Of a stretch of DNA of 64,000 nucleotides, positions 631-10,130 are shown in pieces. Source of the stretch: Myxococcota bacterium (GTDB taxonomy: Bacteria > Myxococcota_A > UBA796 > CAJQPC01); contig DASCPX010000189.1 in assembly GCA_036012755.1 (NCBI GenBank), positions 1 to 64,000 on the forward strand, read 5' to 3'. The position numbers and the translations under genes are program-made. Every line of letters starts with the position of its first letter. Positions within the stretch are counted from its first letter, which is position 1. Below the pieces are notes generated by a model that was not told the DNA's origin, did no database searches, and worked only from the letters and a program-made list of their open reading frames with translations.

Positions 631-706
631 TGTTCCGGCCTCTTGTCCGCCTGGATCTACCCCCATTTGCTCGACCACGAGGGCCGCGCCGCTATAGAAT
701 CCGCCC

Positions 707-985
707 ATGGCCAACGAGTTCCTCCCGGCTTCCGTCCTCATGACCCTCGGACTGACCGGGTGTGGTCTCTTCGGGCCCTGTCTCAGCATCAACAACCCCA
801 ACGCCTGCTTGAGCATCGCCATCGACACCGACTGCGACACCTCCGATCCAGAGGACACCTCCTGCCCCCAGGACACCGCCTCGGGAGAGGCCGCGGAGCA
901 GGCTGAGACGCGCTCCGAGATCACGCGCAAGGTGATCGAGCACGGCGTGTTGCCCGCGGACGTAGCGGACCGGCTCCAGCCCTGA
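707..985 (+). CDS. Small Cys-rich lipoprotein-like protein with xCLS motifs; candidate RiPP precursor A
   Basis: LGLTGC lipobox, PCLSI and ACLSI motifs, C-terminal GVLPADV. Paralogous to the next ORF and in an operon with radical SAM genes. Confidence 0.8.
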   Translation: MANEFLPASVLMTLGLTGCGLFGPCLSINNPNACLSIAIDTDCDTSDPEDTSCPQDTASGEAAEQAETRSEITRKVIEHGVLPADVADRLQP

Positions 986-1011
986 AGAAGGGTCTCCCGC
1001 CCTCGGTCATC

Positions 1012-1368
1012 ATGGCTCTGGGCCTCTCTGGCTGTGGCCTCTTCGGCCCCTGCCTGGAGCCCACGCCCTGCCTCTCCGTCGTCGATCCCTGCTCCCAGGA
1101 CCCGAGACCGCCGGACTGCGGCGAGCCCGTGCCGATCGGACCCTGTCTCGAGCACCACATGCCGCCGGCGGTGTGCCTGAGCGTCGTGCCTCCGACCGTG
1201 TGCCTGAAGATCGACTACCCGGAGCCCTGCCTGAGCATCGCTCCGGAGCCAGACCCTCCAAAGGACGACTGCGACCCCGCCACGGACGACGACTGCCCGA
1301 GCAGGGACGAGGCCAGACAGAAGGCCAAGGAGGCACTCCCAGAGGACGTCAAGGAGAAGGTCGAGTAG
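1012..1368 (+). CDS. Cys/Pro-rich lipoprotein-like protein with six xCLx motifs; candidate RiPP precursor B (true start possibly CTG 982)
   Basis: LGLSGC lipobox; PCLE, PCLS, PCLE, VCLS, VCLK, PCLS; tail LPEDV. Stop is directly followed by the radical SAM start at 1369. Confidence 0.8.
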   Translation: MALGLSGCGLFGPCLEPTPCLSVVDPCSQDPRPPDCGEPVPIGPCLEHHMPPAVCLSVVPPTVCLKIDYPEPCLSIAPEPDPPKDDCDPATDDDCPSRDEARQKAKEALPEDVKEKVE

Positions 1369-2397
1369 GTGGCCGTCGCCACGGAGAGCGCCCGCCTGGA
1401 CTTCGAGCTCAGCACCGGCTGCGACCACCGCTGCGCCCACTGCTACAACATCTGGAACGCCGAAGAGGGTGATCCCCAGCACGGCTACCGTCGCCGTGGC
1501 CCGCCGAGCACATCCGCGCTGAAAGAGACGATGAGCCGCGCCGTGGAGCAGAGCGGAGCGGTGCACCTCACCCTGACCGGCGGCGAGCCACTCCTGCGCA
1601 AGGACGCCCTCGACATCATCGACCACGCCCGGCAGCTCGTACCCAGCGTCTCGCTCATCTCCAACGGCAGTCACATCGACGAAGCCACGGCCAGGGCGCT
1701 GCGCGGGGTTCGCAGCGTCCAGCTGACCCTGCTCGCTGGAGACCGGGACCTTCACGACCGGCTCAAGGGCGCCGTCTGCTTCGACGACACGACGCGGGCT
1801 GCGATCGCGCTGCGTGACGCTGGTGTTCCCTCCCAGTGCTGCTTCGTGGCGCTGTCCGACAACCGCGGCGAGCTGCGGTCCGTGCTGGAGCTCTGCGTCG
1901 CCCTCGACATGGGAAGCCTGAGCTACAACCGCATGAGCCCCGCAGGGGGTGCCATCCACCACTCGCAGCGCCTGATGCCGGATCCTCGGCAGCTCGAAGA
2001 GGACCTCGAGGTGGCGGATCGACTGGGCCGGGCATGGAACATCGCGGTCGGGACGGCGATGCCCATCCCCCCGTGTCTCGTCCGCATCGAGCGGTACAGC
2101 TGGATCCGCTTTGGCTTCTGCAGCGTCGGATCGAGCTCCCCCAGCCTGGTCGTCGACCCCTGGGGAGATGTCCGCAGCTGCAACCTGTCGGGCCACGTGC
2201 TGGGCAACGTGCTCGAGGACGACTGGTCCGAGATCGTGGCTAATCCCTACCTCGCTGAGTTCCGGATGGCCCTGCCGAAAGTCTGTAGTGGATGTGCCTA
2301 CGAGAAGAGCTGCCAGGGAGGGTGCAAGGAGAGCGGCTTCGCCAGCTTCGGCGCCCTGTCGGAGCTGGAGCCCCTGGTGCGTATGGTCCTGGAATGA
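1369..2397 (+). CDS. Radical SAM protein with SPASM domain (PqqE/peptide-maturase-like)
   Basis: CDHRCAHC (CxxxCxxC), LTGGEPLLR, and SPASM cysteines FCSVG...GDVRSC...CSGCAYEKSCQGGC. Confidence 0.92.
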   Translation: MAVATESARLDFELSTGCDHRCAHCYNIWNAEEGDPQHGYRRRGPPSTSALKETMSRAVEQSGAVHLTLTGGEPLLRKDALDIIDHARQLVPSVSLISNGSHIDEATARALRGVRSVQLTLLAGDRDLHDRLKGAVCFDDTTRAAIALRDAGVPSQCCFVALSDNRGELRSVLELCVALDMGSLSYNRMSPAGGAIHHSQRLMPDPRQLEEDLEVADRLGRAWNIAVGTAMPIPPCLVRIERYSWIRFGFCSVGSSSPSLVVDPWGDVRSCNLSGHVLGNVLEDDWSEIVANPYLAEFRMALPKVCSGCAYEKSCQGGCKESGFASFGALSELEPLVRMVLE

Positions 2398-5195
2398 AGG
2401 CGCCGGCGGTCCTGCTCATCAGCCCGGGCATCCTGCGCTGGGTGGACGGCGACTTCGGCCTGCCACACCTCGTCGCGCTGGGCGGCTACCTTCGCGAGCA
2501 CACGGGCGTCAGGGTGGAGATCATCGACCTCAACTACGAGGGCGGTGATCACCAGAGCCTGCTGAAGACACTGAACGATCTCAGCCCCTTGCTGTGTATC
2601 GGTGTGAGCGTCTACTCCAGCTTCGACTTCACGCGGGTCAAGGCGCTCGCGCGCTTCTTGAAGAAGGCCATGCCAGGCGTTCCGCTGATCGCAGGTGGGT
2701 ACCACGCCTCGGCCCTTCCAGGGGACCTCGAGCCCTTCGACAGCGTGGTGCAGGGCGAGGGTGAGCGCCCGATGACGCGCGTCGTCGAGACCCTGCTCGG
2801 TGGCGGCGTCGTCGAGCCTCTGTATCCACACGATCTCGTAGAGGATCTCGACACGCTCCCGCCCTATGCCTGGGACCTGCTCGATCGCTACTGGCCGAAG
2901 GCCCTGCAGCTGGGACGCAAGCTGCAGATCTACTTCTCCCGTGGCTGTCCCTACCACTGCACCTTCTGCATGGAGCGGGCCAAGTCCGGCTACTCCTGGC
3001 GGGCCTACAGCGTCGAGCGTGCGCTGGATGAGCTGCGTCGATTGGGCACCTTCACGCCGCTGGAGCGCTGGGTCGTCAACGTGGCGGATCCGCTCTTCGG
3101 CTTCCAGCGCTCCTGGCGGCGGGAGCTGCTCGATGGCATCGCCACAGAGGGCCTGCTTCCACGGCAGTTCTGGACGCTCACCCGCAGCGACGACCTCGAA
3201 GCAGAGGACGTGAAGCTCCTGGCAGAGGCGCGCTTCAGCATCGGCATCGGGCTCGAGACCGGCAGCCCGCGCATGCACGGGGTGATGCAGAAGGGCAACA
3301 CGCCGGAGCGCTACCTCTCTGCCATCCGCCGGCTCGCTCGACTTAGCCAGGACAATGGGCTGACCTGGGCCACCAACATCATCGTCGGTCACCCCGGTGA
3401 GACCCCCGAGTCCCTGCGAGAGACCCGGGACTTCGTCGAGGAGCTCTTCCTCGGCCAGCCGACCACGCGGGGCTGGCTCAGCGTGGACCCTTTCCGCCTC
3501 TACCCGGGGTCACAGGTCCACGAGCAGATGCAGCTCTGGGAGGAAGAGCACGGCAGCCGCTTCCACCAGCCCCGGTGGTGGCGGAGCTGGTACGACGGTC
3601 CCTTCCGAGCCGAGCACCTCGACCCAAGCCGGGAGCTGGACTTCGAGGCGCGCGTTCGCTGGATGGGCGAGGCCTACCCGCCGCTGTTGGAGTCCATCCG
3701 CCAGCGCTTCGTGAGTAGCGGACGAGAGGTCGACCGGATCTACCGGATGGCCATGGACGAGCAGGTGGCGAACCTCTCGCCCGAGCGCCTACAGAGCGTG
3801 CTCCAAAAGGCCCGGAGCGTGCCGAGGGACGCCGGGGTGCGCATCGAGGTCCCAATCGGACTGGCTCTGAAGGACCCCTGGGTGCGCCGCAGGGAGGCCG
3901 CGGTTCGCCGGCTCCTGGACCGAGGCGTGCTGCGGACCGCCGAGCTCGTCGAGGCCCTGTTGCAGGAGAAGCCGGAGCACTGGATGCCCCCCGAGCAGGC
4001 CCTGCGTGTCCTCGCCGGCGAGGCGACGGAGCCCCACGCCGAGGGTGCCCTGCCCGAGTCCCTCGGGATCGACGCCATCGCCCTGGGGCTGGAGGCCCTG
4101 GGTCCGCTGCGCGGCCAGCGGGTGGCGGATCTGGGTGCGGCGAGCGGCTACCTCGCAGCGCTGCTGTGCCGGCTGGTCGGCGAGGGCGAGGTGCTGGCTC
4201 TCTCCGGGCTCGGCGACCTCCAGGCCATGCTCCCCCGGGCCAGGGTCGTCGAGCCCCATGCCCTTCCGCTGCCGGAAGAGGAGCTCGACGCCGCCTGGCT
4301 CGGAGCGGCCATGCCGCGGTTGCCGGCGGAGCTGAGAGAGCGGGTCGATGGAGGGATGCGCCTGGTCACCTTGCTGGGCCCGCGCTTTCGTGCCCAGGAC
4401 CTCGTCCTGCTCACGGCCCATGGCGAGCAGCGCCTCGGTCGCGTCAAGGCGCCCGTGATGGGCGGGCGCTGGGGCTGGGTGCCGCTCCCGGCGGCCGGTG
4501 TGCCCGCGGACCTGCGCTTCGTGCGCTGGCCGGGGCCCGCGCAGGCCTACCACGTGCTGGCCCACCTCGATCTGGGGGCGGACGCCGCGGGGCTCTACGA
4601 CCCCGAGCTGCCCTCGAGGCCCTGGGTCGAGCCCCTGCGTCGCGCATACGCAGAGGCCGACAGACCCCTCGTGCTGCAAGGCAAGGCACTGAGGCACCGG
4701 ACCGTGCCTGCACTGCTGGCGGACCTGCGGAGCTCCGGAGACGGGCTCCAGGTGCTCTTCGCCGATGCCATCGAGTCCGAGGGGCAGGGCACCTGGCCAG
4801 AGCTGGAAGAGCACGCCGCGTTGTCCCTCGAGCTCCGACACCTGGCCGGGCTCCTGTGGCAGCACCGCCCCCCGCCCCTGCGCCTGCTGGACTGCCCCTC
4901 CCTGGGTCGCCACGGCCGCGCTGGCTGGCTGGATGGGGAGCGCATCGTCGCCGTCAACGCCGCAGAGGATCCGGAACACGTGCTGCAGCAGGTCCTGCAC
5001 GAGTGGGTCCACACGCTCACCGACTCGCTGGTCGAGGTGGACCACGCCAGGCGAGACACCCGCCTCGGCAGCGAGGGCTTCCAGGTCCACGCGGAGCTGG
5101 AGAGGGTCGCCCTGTTGGCGACCGAGGCCATGCTGAGCGAGCGGGCGCCGGAGCACCTGCCAGGCTTCCGGCGGTGGCTGGAGCGAGTCCTGTGA
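2394..5195 (+). CDS. Cobalamin-dependent radical SAM protein fused to a PIMT-like methyltransferase domain and a C-terminal HExxH domain
   Basis: ATGA overlap at 2394. N-terminal B12-binding fold, SRGCPYHCTFC, DLGAASGYLAALLCRLVG (Pcm-like motif I), VLHEWVH near 4998-5012. Confidence 0.88.
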   Translation: MKAPAVLLISPGILRWVDGDFGLPHLVALGGYLREHTGVRVEIIDLNYEGGDHQSLLKTLNDLSPLLCIGVSVYSSFDFTRVKALARFLKKAMPGVPLIAGGYHASALPGDLEPFDSVVQGEGERPMTRVVETLLGGGVVEPLYPHDLVEDLDTLPPYAWDLLDRYWPKALQLGRKLQIYFSRGCPYHCTFCMERAKSGYSWRAYSVERALDELRRLGTFTPLERWVVNVADPLFGFQRSWRRELLDGIATEGLLPRQFWTLTRSDDLEAEDVKLLAEARFSIGIGLETGSPRMHGVMQKGNTPERYLSAIRRLARLSQDNGLTWATNIIVGHPGETPESLRETRDFVEELFLGQPTTRGWLSVDPFRLYPGSQVHEQMQLWEEEHGSRFHQPRWWRSWYDGPFRAEHLDPSRELDFEARVRWMGEAYPPLLESIRQRFVSSGREVDRIYRMAMDEQVANLSPERLQSVLQKARSVPRDAGVRIEVPIGLALKDPWVRRREAAVRRLLDRGVLRTAELVEALLQEKPEHWMPPEQALRVLAGEATEPHAEGALPESLGIDAIALGLEALGPLRGQRVADLGAASGYLAALLCRLVGEGEVLALSGLGDLQAMLPRARVVEPHALPLPEEELDAAWLGAAMPRLPAELRERVDGGMRLVTLLGPRFRAQDLVLLTAHGEQRLGRVKAPVMGGRWGWVPLPAAGVPADLRFVRWPGPAQAYHVLAHLDLGADAAGLYDPELPSRPWVEPLRRAYAEADRPLVLQGKALRHRTVPALLADLRSSGDGLQVLFADAIESEGQGTWPELEEHAALSLELRHLAGLLWQHRPPPLRLLDCPSLGRHGRAGWLDGERIVAVNAAEDPEHVLQQVLHEWVHTLTDSLVEVDHARRDTRLGSEGFQVHAELERVALLATEAMLSERAPEHLPGFRRWLERVL

Positions 5196-5329
5196 GTCGC
5201 ACCTTGGTCGGGTCGTCGCCGGGGTCCTCCAACCGATCGGTCTTCTCTGAGGGAGCGGGGCCTTGACGCGTTCTTCACAAGACGAACGCTCGGCTGGATG
5301 CCGCATGCTGGATTCGTGGAATACAAGAG

Positions 5330-5480
5330 TTGATGGTCGGGCTGCTGCTGGTCTTGGCTTGTGATGGTCCCGTGGAGACGACCTCTCCCTCCGTGTCGCC
5401 GGGCCCGGAGGACGAGCTGCACGACTCCGCAGACGACTGTTCGGATCCGTCCAGTCCGTGTGTCGAGGCGACACCAGGCC
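5330..5480 (+). pseudogene. N-terminal fragment of a lipoprotein
   Basis: MVGLLLVLAC lipobox followed by a Ser/Pro/Asp linker. The frame then runs into the antisense strand of the convergent truncated oxidoreductase. Confidence 0.5.
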
Positions 5481-6029
5481 GAAGATGCCGACGTTGTCGA
5501 CCCAGTCGATGTCGTCCATGCCGGGGATCGGGAAGACCCGGGCACGGGCCCCCGTCGCGATCAGGCTGCGCTTGAAGCGCAGAGTGGTCTCTCCGACGCG
5601 GACTGTGTCGGATCCTGTGAAGCGCGCCTCGCCCTGGAACACGTCCACGCCGGCGTCCCTGAGCCGGGCGGCGCTGTCGTGGTGTGCGATGTCCGCCCGG
5701 ATGCGACGCATGCGCTCCATCGCCGTGCCGAAGTCCACCTCGACCCCATCCACGCTGACACCCATGACTCCACCATGCTGCAGCGCGTGCACGGCGTGGG
5801 CAGCGGCCAACACGCCCTTGCTCGGGATGCACCCGAAGTTCAGGCAGTCGCCGCCGAGCATGTGCTTCTCGACCAGCGCCACTGTCGCGCCCAGGCCAGC
5901 GCTGCCCATCGCGGCCACCAGCCCTGCGGTTCCGCCTCCGAGCACCACCAGGTCGTAGCGCTCGGCGGGAGTCGGGATCGGCCAGTCCCTTGGTTGGACG
6001 TGGGACAGGAGCCGATCCTGGTGGCTCAA
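5474..6029 (-). pseudogene. Truncated class I pyridine nucleotide-disulfide oxidoreductase (mercuric reductase/dihydrolipoamide dehydrogenase-like)
   Basis: TTG 6029 overlaps the arsM stop. YDLVVLGGGTAG, GGDCLNFGCIPSK and IATGA are present; similarity stops at NVGIFGL before the NAD(P)H-binding GxGxxG. Confidence 0.8.
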
Positions 6030-7003
6030 CAGCAACCCCCTCCCGCATAGTGCCAGGTGCTCCCTGTCACCCTCAGCAGCGGGTTGTCGAGCGCCTCGAA
6101 GGCGGCCGCGGTCTTGTCGCAGATCGCGAGCGGGACCTCCGGGATCAGCACGTGGCCGTCGCCGTCGTCGAAGCTGCCCTGGCCGAGCCAGAAGGCCACG
6201 CGACCAGTGAAGACGCAGGCGCCGTCGGCGGGCACGGGGCCCTTGATCGCGACGACCTCGATGGACTCGAGCAGGATGTCCTCGTCGATCCCGTAGGTCT
6301 CGGCGTCCAGCAGCCGGTAGGGCATCCGGCGGCGGATCTCGATGGTGCCGAAGCCGGCCTCGACGAGGTCCTCGATGTAGCGCTCGTAGCTCGGCGCCCC
6401 GGACAGGCAGCGGGCGCGGAGCTCCTCGTCGTCGGCGAGCTTGTCCGGCATCTCGATCGGGGTGATCGGATCGGACAGCACCAGCCGACCGCCGGGCCTC
6501 AACACCCTGTGCATCTCGGAGAGCGCTCGCAGCCGATGCTCGTCGGTGAAGATGTTGAACAGGCAGTTCTGTGCTGCGAGGTCGACGCTGTCGTCGGCGA
6601 CGGGGAGCTCCAGCGCGTCGCCGTCGCGGACGTCCACGAAGTCTGTGGCGAACCAGTCGTTCGTCTCGGCGGCGATCCGGAAGTTCGCCCCTGCCTTGTC
6701 TCGCATCTGGGCGACGGGATCTATGGCGATGACGCCCCCTTCTCGCCGCGCGAACCAGGCGAACTGTAGGGCTTCGAGGCCTCCTCCGACTCCCACGTAG
6801 AGGATGGTCATGTCCCCGTGCAGGTCCTGCAAGTGCACGGTCGTGCCGCAGCCGTAGTTCATCTCCAGCATCTCGACTGGGACCTCGAGGCCGGGGAGGG
6901 CCCACACCGGGCTGGTGGTGCAGCAGAGCTGCGCGTCGGGGCTCGCGGCCGCCTCGGCGTAGACGTCGTGGGTGGTGCGAAGGTAGCTCTCTCGTTGTTC
7001 CAT
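6026..7003 (-). CDS. arsM: Arsenite methyltransferase, arsenosugar-cluster type
   Basis: LCCTTSP, MNYGCGTTVH, YVGVGGG, AQNCLFNI, CLSGA, C-terminal YAGGGCC; adjacent to arsS. Confidence 0.85.
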   Translation of the reverse strand: MEQRESYLRTTHDVYAEAAASPDAQLCCTTSPVWALPGLEVPVEMLEMNYGCGTTVHLQDLHGDMTILYVGVGGGLEALQFAWFARREGGVIAIDPVAQMRDKAGANFRIAAETNDWFATDFVDVRDGDALELPVADDSVDLAAQNCLFNIFTDEHRLRALSEMHRVLRPGGRLVLSDPITPIEMPDKLADDEELRARCLSGAPSYERYIEDLVEAGFGTIEIRRRMPYRLLDAETYGIDEDILLESIEVVAIKGPVPADGACVFTGRVAFWLGQGSFDDGDGHVLIPEVPLAICDKTAAAFEALDNPLLRVTGSTWHYAGGGCC

Positions 7004-7011
7004 GGGTCCCT

Positions 7012-7968
7012 TCAGGTCAGCGCACCACCGCAGGACGAGCCGGCGCCGGCGGTGCAGCCGAAGCAGTGTGTTCCGACTACGACGGGGCGTCCCTGCCAGT
7101 CGTCGATGTCGTCGATGTCGAAGATGGTCGCCTGCGGTCCAGGGACCGGCAGATCGAGCATCTGGTTGAAGTCGCAGTCATAGAGGGCGCCGTCCCAGCC
7201 GACGCTCAACAGGTGACGACACATCAGCCCGTCCACCGTGCCCGGGTTGAACGCGCCGGCGAGGAGCTCCATGTACTCATCGTGTCGACCCTGTCGGGCC
7301 AGGTCGGAGCCAAAGCGGGCGATCGGCATGTTCGCAATAGCCAGCAGGTTGCTGAACTCGACGCCGAAGTCTGTGCGTAGTCGCTGCTTGTAGTCCCTCT
7401 CGAGCCCCTCCTGAGCCGGAGGGAGGAAGGCGCCGCCGGGGTTGTAGACCAGGGTCAGGCTGCGGCTCGTGCCGTAGCCGAGTCGATTCAGGAGCCTCAG
7501 CGCCTCGACGCTCTTGTCGAAGACCCCGCGTCCGCGCTGCTTGTCGACGTTGTCGGCCGTGTAGCAGGGCAGGCTGGCGACGACCTCGACGTCGTGCTCG
7601 GCGAGGAACTCGGCGGTTCCTTCCTGCCTGGGCTCCCACAGCACCGTGAGGTTGCAGCGGTCGATGACGCGCCGGCCCAGGGCGCGAGCGCCCGCGACGA
7701 GGCGGCGGAACCCGGGGTTGAGCTCCGGTGCGCCGCCGGTGATGTCGAGGAGCTCCAGCTCGGGGCTCTTGCCCAGGAGCTGCAGCACGGCCTCGATCGT
7801 CGCTCCCTCCATCATCTCGGTGCGGGTCGGACCGGCGTCGACGTGGCAGTGACGACAGGCCTGGTTGCACCGCTTGCCCATGTTCACCTGCAGCCAGCTC
7901 GGGCGAGCGCGCCGCAGGGGGCCGACACCATGGACTCTCAGGGTTCGGCCGAAGTCGTGGGTCGTCAT
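7012..7968 (-). CDS. arsS: Arsenosugar-biosynthesis-type radical SAM protein (rSAM/Cys-rich)
   Basis: LQVNMGKRCNQACRHCHVDAGP, DITGGAPELNP, ASLPCY, YDCDFNQ, HCFGCTAGAGSSCGG. Start taken as ATG 7968. Confidence 0.88.
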   Translation of the reverse strand: MTTHDFGRTLRVHGVGPLRRARPSWLQVNMGKRCNQACRHCHVDAGPTRTEMMEGATIEAVLQLLGKSPELELLDITGGAPELNPGFRRLVAGARALGRRVIDRCNLTVLWEPRQEGTAEFLAEHDVEVVASLPCYTADNVDKQRGRGVFDKSVEALRLLNRLGYGTSRSLTLVYNPGGAFLPPAQEGLERDYKQRLRTDFGVEFSNLLAIANMPIARFGSDLARQGRHDEYMELLAGAFNPGTVDGLMCRHLLSVGWDGALYDCDFNQMLDLPVPGPQATIFDIDDIDDWQGRPVVVGTHCFGCTAGAGSSCGGALT

Positions 7969-8014
7969 GACCACCCAGATGCTCTGTGGGCCCCGGCGAT
8001 GCAAAGAGAAGACC

Positions 8015-8116
8015 CTGGACGTGGTCGTCGACCAGGAGGGCGTCGTCCGCTTCGTCGACACCCGCTACGACCCGGACACCATCGAGGCGCTGATCGACGA
8101 GCTGCTCTCCGAGTGA
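8015..8116 (+). pseudogene. Orphan C-terminal fragment resembling a thioredoxin/peroxiredoxin-fold protein
   Basis: LDVVVDQEGVVRFVDTRYDPDTIEALIDELLSE* with coding-like codon usage and no plausible N-terminus. Confidence 0.45.
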
Positions 8117-8117
8117 T

Positions 8118-8735
8118 CTACAGGCCCGCGCAGTCGGTGGCTTCGATCAGTGGGAGCAGCGCCTCGAGGTGGTTGTCGTAGGCGTCCTCGTCGAGGATCG
8201 GCTCCACCTCGAGCTCTCCGGCGAGCTCACCGACGAGGAAGACGCGGTCGTTTGGGATGCCGGCGGCCAAGAAGGCGGTGATGTCGGACTCGGCGTTGCC
8301 ATAGGCCCAGGCGTGTGACCAGCCCTCTGCGGCCTGATCCGAGAGGACCTCTGTCTTGTACTCGGCCGCGTCGTCGCCGAGCACGCCGTAGCCATCCGAG
8401 AGGTAGATGCGCTCTTCGTCGACGGGGAAGTCGTGGGCAACCAGCCAGTCCCGGGTGCCCTCCCACGCCGAGCGGCCGTCGGAGAGCTGGAAGTCGTCGC
8501 CCCGGGCCGTGACGTAGAAGACGCCGTAGCCCTGGGCGGCGTAGGCGCTCATCAAGGTGTTGGCCTCCGACCGCATCTCCGGGTCGTAGGTGGCGTCGGC
8601 CATCTGGGAGACCCACTCCCCATCGCTGGTCGTCAGGGTCTCGTCGATGTCGGTGACGACCGCCTGGTAGGAGACGCAGGGGCCGCTGTCGGGGTTGGTG
8701 CCTGTGCAGGCCGCGAGCAGGAAGAGCATTGGCAC
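8118..8735 (-). CDS. HAD-family LNS2/PITP-like phosphatase lipoprotein
   Basis: LLAAC lipobox; VVTDIDETLT (DxD), YVTARG, AYGNAESD. Confidence 0.8.
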   Translation of the reverse strand: MPMLFLLAACTGTNPDSGPCVSYQAVVTDIDETLTTSDGEWVSQMADATYDPEMRSEANTLMSAYAAQGYGVFYVTARGDDFQLSDGRSAWEGTRDWLVAHDFPVDEERIYLSDGYGVLGDDAAEYKTEVLSDQAAEGWSHAWAYGNAESDITAFLAAGIPNDRVFLVGELAGELEVEPILDEDAYDNHLEALLPLIEATDCAGL

Positions 8736-8747
8736 CTCTACCTCGCT

Positions 8748-10130
8748 TCACAGGCTCCTGGCGAGCTGGCCCAGCCGCACGACGGCCTCCTCGGTGCGTG
8801 GACCCCAGGGCACGCTGGCGTTGAGTCGGAGGCAGCGCCGGAGCCCGCCAGTGGCCGAGAACATCGGCCCCGGAGCCACGCTGATGCCCTCGTCCCAGGC
8901 CCGCTCGAAGAGATCGAGGGCGTCGCCGTCCGGGATCTCCACCCAGAGGAACTGTCCGCCTCGAGGCCGGCTGATCCCCGTGTCGCTCGGGAAGCTCTCT
9001 GCGACCGCGGTCGAGATTCGCCGCACATGGTCCCTGTAGGCCCGGCGCAGTCGGCGAAGGTGACGGTCGTAGCCCCCGCTGTCGAGGAACTCGGCCGCCG
9101 TGAGCTGTGGAACCGTCGCGCAGGCGAGGCTCGAGACCATCTTGCGCCGGGAGAGCTCGGCGGTGAACCGGCCCCCAGCGACCCAGCCGACGCGCAGCCC
9201 CGGGCTCAGCGTCTTGCTCAGGGTGCCGCAGGAGAGCACGATGCCGCCCCTGTCCCAGGCCTTCAGCGAGCGCGGCCGCCGACCGTCGAAGCCAAGGTCC
9301 CCATAGGCGTCGTCCTCGACGATCGGTACTCCGGCCCGGCTGCACATCTCGACGAGGCGCCCCTTGCCCTCGTCGTTGACGAGGGAGCCCAGCGGGTTGC
9401 TGTAGTTCGGCGCCACCGCCACGGCGTAGACCTCGGGCAGGACCGCCTCCAGGGCGTCGAGGTCGATGCCTCGGCCTGGGTGGCAGGGCACCTCTACGGG
9501 CTCGATGCCCTGGGAGCGCAGGATCTCGAGCAGTCCGAAGTAGGTGGGTGACTCCACCGCGACCCGGTCACCAGGGGAGCAGATCGTGCGGAAGCAGAGG
9601 TCGAGCGCCTCCTGGCAGCCGGCGGTGATGACGAGGTCATCTGGCGACAGCGTGCAGCCCGTCGCGATCAGTCGCTTCGCCAGAGCCCGTCGGAGCCGCA
9701 GGTGACCGGGGGCCATGACGTAGTCGTGGCTCTCTCGTCGCTCCCTGGCCACCCGACCCATCAGCCTGTCGAGCTGCTTCAGTGGGAGCTGGCCAGGATC
9801 GGGGAGCCCGCAGCCGAGGCCGACGAGGCCTTCCTGCCCTGCCCTCATCGTGATGCGCACCATGAGGTCGTGGCTGTCGAGGCCCGGTCCGGGCTCGGAG
9901 GTCCGAGGCTCAGGAGGCCGCGCGCTCGCCTTGACGTAGTGCCCGGACTGCGGGCGCACCTCGATCGTGCCTCGGTCCTCGAGCAGCCGGTAGGCCTGGA
10001 GCACCGTCGAGACGCTCACCCCCCAGTCCTGGCGCAGGCCGCGCACCGACGGGGTCTTCTGTCCCGGGAGCAGGGTCCCCGCGTCCACGAGGTCCTGGAG
10101 ACGATCGGCGATGTCTTCGTAGAGCGGCAT
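8748..10130 (-). CDS. MocR/GntR-family transcriptional regulator with PLP aminotransferase domain
   Basis: PSVRGL...VSVSTVLQAYRLLE...PQSGHYV winged HTH; IVEDDAY; SKTLSPGLRVGW. Confidence 0.92.
   Translation of the reverse strand: MPLYEDIADRLQDLVDAGTLLPGQKTPSVRGLRQDWGVSVSTVLQAYRLLEDRGTIEVRPQSGHYVKASARPPEPRTSEPGPGLDSHDLMVRITMRAGQEGLVGLGCGLPDPGQLPLKQLDRLMGRVARERRESHDYVMAPGHLRLRRALAKRLIATGCTLSPDDLVITAGCQEALDLCFRTICSPGDRVAVESPTYFGLLEILRSQGIEPVEVPCHPGRGIDLDALEAVLPEVYAVAVAPNYSNPLGSLVNDEGKGRLVEMCSRAGVPIVEDDAYGDLGFDGRRPRSLKAWDRGGIVLSCGTLSKTLSPGLRVGWVAGGRFTAELSRRKMVSSLACATVPQLTAAEFLDSGGYDRHLRRLRRAYRDHVRRISTAVAESFPSDTGISRPRGGQFLWVEIPDGDALDLFERAWDEGISVAPGPMFSATGGLRRCLRLNASVPWGPRTEEAVVRLGQLARSL

Follow-up and report, generated by a model that had tools for sequence, protein, structure and literature searches.

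Tandem Cys-Leu precursor genes with a lipoprotein-like N-terminus and a conserved C-terminal tail in a myxobacterial radical SAM cassette

The DNA analysed here, called the window in the following, comprises 64,000 nucleotides (positions 1 to 64,000 of contig DASCPX010000189.1, GenBank assembly GCA_036012755.1) from the genome of a Myxococcota bacterium. Close to its start, two small open reading frames (ORFs A and B) lie in tandem on the forward strand ahead of the genes for a radical S-adenosylmethionine (SAM) enzyme with a SPASM domain and for a fusion protein with a B12-binding radical SAM core. Both ORFs are best explained as the tandem substrate proteins of an undescribed myxobacterial cassette, and would belong to the type of peptides which are made by ribosomes and modified after translation (RiPPs). 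An earlier reading of the same DNA, made without database searches and called the sequence-only reading below, had proposed that a lipobox takes the place of the classical leader in these precursors, that the product may be lipid-anchored and displayed on the surface after modification in the cytoplasm, and that the tail is the recognition element of the enzymes.

ORF A encodes a precursor of 92 residues from ATG 707 to TGA 985 on the plus strand and has homologues at 83% and 56% identity. It begins with MANEFLPASVLMTLGLTGCGLFGPCLS and its C-terminus is RSEITRKVIEHGVLPADVADRLQP. The signal-like segment MANEFLPASVLMTLGLTG-C19 (707..763, plus strand), which has the lipobox LTGC and an n-region without Lys or Arg, is followed by a core (764..910) with the motifs GPC25LS and AC34LS and the acidic stretch DCDTSDPEDTSCP. 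The tail (911..982) contains D85, which is invariant in the alignments of the tails and of 150 family members, and L82 and P83, which are nearly so. ORF B (982..1368, plus strand) encodes 128 residues when read from CTG 982 and 118 residues from ATG 1012. Its signal-like segment (M)KKGLPPSVIMALGLSG-C18 (982..1035) ends in the lipobox LSGC, so that the lipoboxes of both ORFs fit the classic pattern; the core (1036..1299) holds ten more Cys, mostly in P/V-C-L-[SEK] motifs, and the tail SRDEARQKAKEALPEDVKEKVE (1300..1365) was placed by the tail alignments. All four terminal strings quoted by the sequence-only reading for the two ORFs are present in the sequence, and the middles are variable in length as well as in sequence, as it had stated. 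In the clade of the window an extra acidic stretch with two Cys stands before the tail (DCDTSDPEDTSCP at 830-870 in ORF A, and DDCDPATDDDCP at 1265-1300 in ORF B), and similar stretches occur in the family members P0003, P0096 and P0108.

The start of ORF B deserves attention. As listed, the ORF starts at ATG 1012 with the sequence MALGLSGCGLFGPCL.... The residues KKGLPPSVI, and with them the LPPSVIM string of the sequence-only reading, are encoded in frame immediately 5' of this ATG. When the open frame 5' of it is searched for ATG, GTG, TTG and CTG, the sole such codon is CTG 982, from which the N-terminus reads (M)KKGLPPSVIMALGLSGC. This CTG shares nucleotides with the TGA of ORF A (cCTGA), just as three tandem precursor genes in the related locus L002 overlap one another by ATGA. 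The A/B junction therefore looks like an L002-type coupling site with C replacing A, and ORF B would either be translated from a coupled non-canonical CTG or have suffered recent damage to its start codon. The CTG was confirmed in the independent DNA run X9 (a 261-nt contig over 948-1208 with 0 differences); a metagenome scan with ORF B for the start codon of close relatives returned the window's own contig alone.

A sigma-70-like promoter match (671..700, plus strand; TCGACC, 18-nt spacer, TAGAAT), which is a consensus match only, was found once compared with 0.2 matches expected from shuffled sequences. It ends 7 nt 5' of the ATG of ORF A, and this distance suggests an mRNA which is leaderless or nearly so. 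No Shine-Dalgarno-like sequence was seen 5' of ORF A or ORF B. One contig of a metatranscriptome library is identical to 817-982, which is a weak hint of expression because DNA can occur in such libraries. In the ESM Atlas ORF A has no informative neighbour, and the Atlas model of it reaches a pLDDT of 0.38.

A word-indexed homologue search with ORF A found only 3 proteins, and a HMMER profile search was needed to reveal the family. The profile, built from 18 precursors, was compared with 1.84 billion cluster representatives. It matched 476 proteins at E<=0.001, and 219 when the limit was set to E<=1e-10; the 476 members are clusters at 50% identity. In addition 45 precursors, the two of the window included, were compiled by hand by reading about 35 myxobacterial loci in six frames for small Cys-containing ORFs. 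The material read was the 27 loci found by relatives of the SPASM enzyme and 20 further regions from more distant genomes, and partial ORFs at contig ends (L020, L060, L066) were excluded. As a gene-called, independent set we used 141 representatives, namely those of the 149 best database representatives which start with Met and possess the tail. No Pfam or NCBIfam family covers the precursors, as judged by scans of the cassette proteins and by Pfam on 150 members; at E<=10 the latter gave low-complexity noise except for one Cu-binding_MopE match (E 2e-08).

Three parts are common to all members. The N-terminus is hydrophobic and ends in a small residue and Cys; a Cys-Leu core and the tail follow. 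The core contains a variable number of [G/x]-P-C-L-[D/S/E] motifs separated by acidic spacers rich in Thr, Asp and Pro. The resemblance between the termini of A and B is not due to chance, since both the N-terminal motif and the tail are found again in the 45 compiled precursors and in 141 of the 149 best database representatives. In the 150-sequence alignment the sole invariant column is the tail Asp (D85 of ORF A), and the columns conserved to at least 90% are M1, L14 and G15 (the N-terminal LG), C25, L26, C34, L35, L82 and P83.

According to their N-termini the compiled precursors belong to two architectures. Type 1, with 29 precursors including ORFs A and B, has one short hydrophobic stretch and the consensus M-x-x-K-K-L-P-x-S-V-L-x-A-L-G-L, followed by 1-9 residues and then [G/A/S]-C, with the first Cys at position 17-32. 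To judge these N-termini we applied the PROSITE rule PS51257 (core pattern, Cys at 15-35, and Lys or Arg among residues 1-7) and, as a second pattern, the classic lipobox [LVI][ASTVI][GAS]-C. The residue at -1 to the Cys is Gly, Ala or Ser in 28 of the 29 type 1 precursors and small in 16/16 of type 2. A Lys or Arg occurs within the first seven residues in 26/29 and 16/16, respectively, counts which are affected by start codons chosen by hand (the nearest upstream ATG, else GTG or TTG). Of the 29 type 1 precursors, 19 have the PROSITE core pattern, 16 pass the full rule and 6 possess the classic lipobox. Of the 141 representatives, 131 have their first Cys at 15-35 and 132 a small residue at -1; the full rule applies to 84 (about 60%), compared with a background of 299 out of 11,573 ORFs of at least 200 residues in the window's genome (2.6%, any start codon).

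Further features of type 1 fit a signal as well. Lys or Arg stands upstream of the hydrophobic motif in 130/133 representatives. The distance between ALGL and the Cys has a modal value of 2 residues (35/137 representatives), which sets the last Leu of ALGL at position -3 of the lipobox and gives LAAC, LSAC, LAGC or LTGC. The uncharged run before the Cys measures 14 residues in A and B and 11-20 in most relatives, where an h-region would have about 7-22, and the hydrophobic stretch of 8-15 residues suits the h-region of a signal while being too short for a membrane span. The window's genome also encodes the enzymes concerned, with 2 Peptidase_A8 matches for LspA and 5 LGT matches for Lgt, above the cut-off. 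Two LspA-like and two Lgt-like genes stand in tandem on contig C59 of this genome (100000-102591), with three more Lgt-like genes elsewhere.

The 16 type 2 precursors open with a canonical lipoprotein signal, for instance MDVRRTLRLLAVGLLAASVLTAC; all of them pass the full PROSITE rule, and 12 of the 16 have the classic lipobox. After the signal come about 8 residues (TVSVxGG), a hydrophobic helix of 19-25 residues, a second small-residue/Cys motif (typically TQxGC), an acidic linker, the GPCL repeats and the tail. Type 2 precursors are found 5' of the SPASM gene in L012, L019, L021, L024 and L025, and also in L058, L061-L063, L067-L069, L071 and L072. Judged by these signals, the family clearly uses the lipoprotein pathway. 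A lipobox reading is plausible for the type 1 N-terminus too, and a lipoprotein signal is the best single explanation of it, one that is weaker for ORF A and dependent on the CTG start for ORF B.

The best-conserved element of the precursor is the tail, which takes the form of an amphipathic helix followed by G-x-LPxDVxxRL. LPxD[VILT] near the C-terminus is present in 26/29 type 1 precursors, in 16/16 type 2 precursors and in 141/149 representatives, and its Asp is invariant in the 29 aligned tails as well as in the 150-sequence alignment. Thus two expectations of the sequence-only reading bore out: the tail is conserved, more than any other part of the protein, and the lipobox Cys is conserved together with the small residue before it. 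Because the same tail occurs in both N-terminal architectures, it appears to be the better candidate for the enzyme-facing element, in agreement with the sequence-only reading, and its conservation would fit a docking follower. A comparison of the tail profile with PDB sequences returned only designed armadillo repeats, with no stretch passing alone, and was judged spurious.

The association of the precursors with the enzymes was studied in the 27 loci from myxobacterial metagenome-assembled genomes which encode relatives of the SPASM enzyme (54-65% identity). The B12-radical SAM gene adjoins the SPASM gene in 25 of them; one miss is a contig end and the other is L004, where the SPASM gene and a match to the HExxH domain described below are found at 4001-6623 and the B12-radical SAM core is absent within 4 kb downstream. 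Precursor genes lie 5' of the enzymes in most loci and 3' of the last gene in L005 and L007. In these two loci (L005 8339-8854, L007 about 8268-8810) the precursor gene stands 3' of the HExxH-domain gene and a DUF389 membrane protein occupies the upstream place; in L007 the HExxH-domain frame and the precursor lie within a single open frame, which is 474 codons long. When 401 genomes sampled from the phylum were scanned with a profile of the B12 protein's last domain, 30 proved to have the cassette; among 11 other genomes of the window's own family the count was 0, and the locus described here is the only copy in the window's genome.

All frames of at least 120 residues in the 27 loci were compared all against all. 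Outside the cassette no gene is common to more than 6 of the 27 loci, and the one shared by six encodes a metallo-beta-lactamase fold. Neither a transporter gene nor a separate protease gene is conserved around the cassette in these loci, which agrees with the lack of a dedicated transporter pointed out by the sequence-only reading. A link to arsenic genes was considered and rejected, as the ArsM, ArsS, GST-like and HAD neighbours are common to 0 of the 27 related loci. In the window the arsenosugar genes ArsM (NF038099, E 1e-146) and ArsS (TIGR04167, E 1e-128) converge on the cassette (6026-8061, minus strand). Between them and the cassette lies a fragment of a pyridine nucleotide-disulfide oxidoreductase gene (5466-5987, minus strand), which covers positions 1-120 of the 291 of the Pyr_redox_2 profile, has the redox motif GGDCLNFGC, loses similarity after about 174 residues, and may be a truncated or frameshifted gene.

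The SPASM enzyme (1369..2397, plus strand) has 342 residues, with CxxxCxxC at residues 18-25 and no N-terminal extension. The ATG of the 933-residue B12 fusion protein (2394-5195, plus strand) overlaps its stop codon as ATGA. This protein is composed of the B12-binding radical SAM core (2394..3833), which was identified by Pfam and NCBIfam scans, a PIMT-like domain (residues 481-704; 3834..4505) and a zincin-like domain with an HExxH motif (residues 705-933; 4506..5195); the latter two had been missed by the sequence-only reading. The scans of the cassette proteins returned Radical_SAM, SPASM, B12-binding and PCMT only and no MNIO (DUF692) family. The NCBIfam scores of the SPASM enzyme stay below the cut-offs (GeoRSP 80.8 vs 400, PqqE 79 vs 381, StsB 77.3 vs 625). 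No family of the RRE (PqqD-type recognition) kind was matched by these scans in either radical SAM enzyme, and a divergent RRE elsewhere is possible.

The AlphaFold model of the PIMT-like domain has a pLDDT of 85.7 and matches 2yxe in Foldseek (E 6.6e-11, TM 0.78 by target), and the profile comparison with the PDB likewise aligned it to 2yxe (E 1.2e-22). In the SAM motif, DLTARSGY of the consensus faces EIGTGCGY of 2yxe, and the window has DLGAASGY. The Gly residues of this motif (GxGxG) are lost and the TIS segment is not kept (TISA faces paal); for this reason the domain may bind rather than methylate. The HExxH domain is compact in its model (pLDDT 92.8). It has the invariants Q..HE..H..TD and a downstream H..LE; H165, E166, H169, H195 and E199 are invariant in 15 HExxH-domain sequences, the motif is found in 18/19 loci, and in about 10 related loci the domain is encoded by a separate gene. 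No Pfam or NCBIfam family matches it, and Foldseek gave no match at E<=0.001. The top rows of the VIA structural comparison are zincins (BlaR1 Z 6.5, YbeY 6.1, Wss1 5.5, selecase 5.1, ZMPSTE24 4.9), all with Z scores under 8, the level of trust advised for the tool. The same limit holds for the HExxH domain of ChlB (PDB 8s5f, Z 4.2), an alpha-ketoglutarate-dependent HExxH oxygenase. From its modelled fold and its motif the domain could be a follower or leader peptidase, or an oxygenase of the alpha-ketoglutarate type. The PIMT-like and HExxH domains appear to be the likeliest parts to handle the tail.

From the precursor anatomy and its conservation, the linkage of the genes and the domain folds, as observed above, we infer a pathway with a docking site, a chemistry, a trimming step, export and lipidation. 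The first part of the precursor would be a signal for Sec and signal peptidase II, with a short and usually basic n-region, LPxSVLxALGL, a small residue and Cys; the second a variable array of [G/x]-P-C-L-[D/S/E] motifs amid acidic spacers; and the third a C-terminal follower consisting of the amphipathic helix and G-x-LPxDVxxRL. Cytoplasmic enzymes would hold the precursor by this follower, most likely through the PIMT-like or the HExxH domain of the B12 fusion. The SPASM and B12 radical SAM enzymes would modify the Cys-Leu motifs, and trimming of the follower may be the task of the HExxH domain. Guided by its N-terminal signal, the product would then reach SecYEG, where Lgt would lipidate the conserved Cys and LspA would cut before it. 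The outcome would be a lipid-anchored, modified peptide without a dedicated transporter. In type 2 precursors, which would combine a lipoprotein signal with a stop-transfer helix, the lipid anchor would keep the repeats at the cytoplasmic face. This full course, from follower-held modification to Sec export, lipidation and cleavage by LspA, we propose tentatively, as a possibility which falls slightly short of an even chance.

A number of observations weigh against the proposed pathway. In ORF A the PROSITE core pattern and the Cys position (19) pass and the Lys/Arg criterion fails: the n-region of ORF A (MANEF...) contains a Glu at position 4 and no basic residue, and the same is true of the homologue at 83% identity (MVNEL...), although the 56% homologue starts with MKDPK and thus has the basic residues K2 and K5. 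In ORF B both the KK n-region and agreement with the full PROSITE rule depend on a start at CTG 982; read from ATG 1012, it would have just 7 residues before the Cys. In total 13 of the 29 type 1 precursors fail the rule, 10 by the core pattern and 3 by Lys or Arg alone, and the latter criterion is sensitive to the hand-made choice of starts. The core-pattern failures are LEAC, IEGC, ADGC, KTAC, DTGC, SEGC, QPGC and GATC in addition to L005 and L007; mostly they are caused by a charged or odd residue at -2 or -3, and in L005 and L007 by a Glu within the hydrophobic stretch. About 40% of the relatives have a degenerate lipobox. The Pfam families for lipoprotein attachment sites, which are weak models, match none of 150 members. 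What the sequence-only reading had said of signal peptidase II therefore stands in part: the signal anatomy of most relatives and the Lgt and LspA genes of the genome agree with it, while the n-region of ORF A, the CTG of ORF B and the 13 failing precursors do not.

Besides these irregularities the ALGL motif is conserved too well, being 23-24 of 25 identical although the enzymes are only about 60% identical. Because this conservation exceeds the need of a generic signal peptide, the motif may be read by something besides or instead of Sec. A different kind of objection comes from type 2. According to ordinary stop-transfer logic a second hydrophobic helix after a signal leaves the downstream domain in the cytoplasm; by this predicted topology the repeats and the tail of type 2 should be cytoplasmic, and the QKRN found after the second helix of L067a agrees with cytoplasmic repeats. 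Since a repeat domain homologous to that of type 1 would thereby remain cytoplasmic, the family as a whole would not require that the modified array be exported. The surface display suggested by the sequence-only reading is unsupported, and for the type 2 relatives it is contradicted by the predicted topology. On the side of the enzymes, the degenerate SAM motif of the PIMT-like domain speaks against the proposal as well, and the tentative zincin assignment of the HExxH domain rests on motif conservation and middling fold scores.

Alternatively, the N-terminus could be a leader for membrane targeting and enzyme recognition which is not lipidated. The precursor would then be retained and modified at the cytoplasmic face of the inner membrane. 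Cleavage by the HExxH domain would occur either between the small residue and the Cys or at the tail; the product would stay inside or leave by an unlinked route. The excess conservation of ALGL, the non-canonical -2 or -3 residues of 8 of the 29 type 1 precursors and the missing basic residues of ORF A all agree with such a leader. So do the cytoplasmic core of type 2, whose second Cys (TQxGC) has a small -1 residue yet no usable lipobox, the membrane-proximal proteases BlaR1, ZMPSTE24 and BepA among the fold rows of the HExxH domain, and the resemblance of the N-terminal LPxSVLxAL to LPxDVAxRL of the tail. The hydrophobic stretch of type 1, however, is too short to span a membrane, and the Lys or Arg which precedes the motif in 130/133 representatives would orient it such that the C-terminus is sent outward. 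The modal spacing yields a canonical L-x-[AGS]-C, and the textbook lipoprotein signal of 16/16 type 2 precursors suggests that the family uses that pathway. A comparison of hidden Markov models of the type 1 N-terminus with the type 2 signal or second helix gave 0-13 bits; the means (5.0 vs 3.4) lean slightly to the signal peptide and are inconclusive. We regard a non-lipidated leader as a serious competitor, if on the whole an unlikely one.

A second alternative concerns the tail, which might not be a docking follower at all but serve as a substrate or have a function within the mature product. Either its Asp would be the target of the PIMT-like domain, which would methylate it and so give rise to a succinimide or isoAsp, or the helix would be retained for protein interaction. 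PIMT homologues acting on Asp are known in RiPP pathways, and here a PIMT-fold domain is conserved in the cassette while the Asp of LPxD is invariant. The loss of the SAM-motif Gly and of the TIS segment argues against catalysis, and a substrate role would be compatible with a docking role. That the tail has such a function in place of docking seems distinctly unlikely to us.

It is also conceivable that a common Sec signal, which signal peptidase I removes or which stays uncut, forms the N-terminus and delivers a soluble periplasmic or secreted product, the Cys being the first modified residue of the core. The n-region and h-region are signal-like, the small -1 residue suits signal peptidase I as well, and the Cys stands just 2-8 residues ahead of the first GPCL motif. 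But signal peptidase I disfavours Leu at -3, where it is often found in this family. Moreover, nearly all members retain a Cys next to the small residue at any spacing, and type 2 members have canonical lipoboxes. With plain Sec signals reported for the bufferins (PMC12452194), this alternative has a precedent, and we nevertheless consider it improbable for the present family. There is next to no chance that the small ORFs are mere chance frames with strings shared by non-coding local duplication, as the 68% G+C of the DNA with its many spurious ORFs and the non-canonical start of ORF B might suggest, because both ends and the Cys-Leu motifs are conserved as protein in the 45 compiled and 476 database relatives while the DNA has diverged, at a fixed position beside the same enzymes; this family-wide conservation at the protein level refutes it.

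Returning to the proposed lipoprotein pathway, a bolder version of it would be that these precursors are the first radical-SAM/B12 lipoprotein-RiPP hybrids. In them a follower with an invariant Asp would dock on a degenerate PIMT-like domain, the signal would double as a hold-back or recognition motif, and two topologies, an exported array with a lipid anchor and an array anchored by lipid plus helix at the cytoplasmic face, would present modified-Cys arrays on either side of the inner membrane. Taken as a whole this version is speculative and tends to the unlikely side. The family in question is large, with its 476 clusters at 50% identity, and both the precursor and the HExxH domain are without a Pfam or NCBIfam family. 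The coexistence of type 1 and type 2 represents a natural experiment in topology. The system bears on how export is delayed until modification ends, on the chemistry of SPASM and B12 enzymes on Cys-Leu motifs, and on the purpose of tethered arrays of modified Cys.

Several known systems can be compared with this cassette. The zincin leader peptidases and ChlB-type oxygenases, both of them HExxH enzymes known from RiPP pathways, share with the window's domain the invariant HExxH with a downstream His/Glu, the fusion to or vicinity of a radical SAM enzyme, and the zincins in the top structural rows, whereas the window's domain has no sequence-family match and only middling fold scores. Alpha-ketoglutarate-dependent HExxH enzymes are reported from other RiPP pathways (PMC12636437). 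The SPASM-dependent thioether RiPPs (sactipeptides, ranthipeptides/SCIFF, QhpC-type cross-links) resemble the cassette in that a SPASM enzyme adjoins a Cys-rich peptide, and there is weak NCBIfam similarity to StsB, PqqE and GeoRSP. They differ in that the scores here lie far under the family cut-offs, no RRE domain was matched by the Pfam and NCBIfam scans, the precursor has a signal-like N-terminus and not a soluble leader, and the cassette adds a B12 enzyme with PIMT-like and HExxH domains.

The bufferins are MNIO-modified, Sec-exported, copper-binding RiPPs in which Sec signals replace the leaders (PMC12452194, PMC11626156). According to PMC12452194 about 16% of the Buf2 members are predicted to have lipoprotein signals, and the bufferin signal peptide was proposed to serve in enzyme recognition too. 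A Sec signal in the place of the leader and Cys residues as modified sites (proposed for the window family) are common to both. The enzyme class differs, no follower is described for the bufferins, and the folded bufferin cores with fixed Cys counts stand against disordered acidic arrays with a variable number of Cys-Leu motifs.

The closest precedent, by analogy, are the MNIO-made DAG-RiPPs, which are RiPP-lipoprotein hybrids (DybA/DybH, NedA/NedBC). DybA and NedA are triacylated via the lipoprotein pathway after cytoplasmic modification by MNIO enzymes, as shown in a 2026 PNAS paper (PMC13056109). That a general lipoprotein pathway replaces both leader protease and transporter was shown in 2025-26, for MNIO enzymes only. 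These systems agree with ours in the small Cys-containing precursor with a lipoprotein-type signal (a putative one in our family) where the leader would be, in cytoplasmic, signal-less modifying enzymes, in a gene cluster without transporter or leader protease, and in the conserved Cys immediately after the hydrophobic stretch. Our full-text literature searches found no description of the present cassette or of a radical-SAM DAG-RiPP, and the term 'Radical SAM' is absent from the main text of PMC13056109. DybA and NedA are known by experiment, whereas the window family is known here from sequence analysis; its lipobox is degenerate in about 40% of the relatives, and its second architecture adds a transmembrane helix. 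The enzymes are different too, a radical SAM/SPASM enzyme and a B12-radical SAM fusion here compared with an MNIO enzyme and a partner protein there. Finally, in comparison with the DAG-RiPPs the window family possesses a strictly conserved C-terminal follower. According to PMC13056109 further RiPP-lipoproteins are likeliest in pathways 'that use follower peptides', and ones not made by MNIO enzymes 'may exist'; if the proposed pathway is true, the family would be the predicted follower-using case, for radical SAM chemistry.

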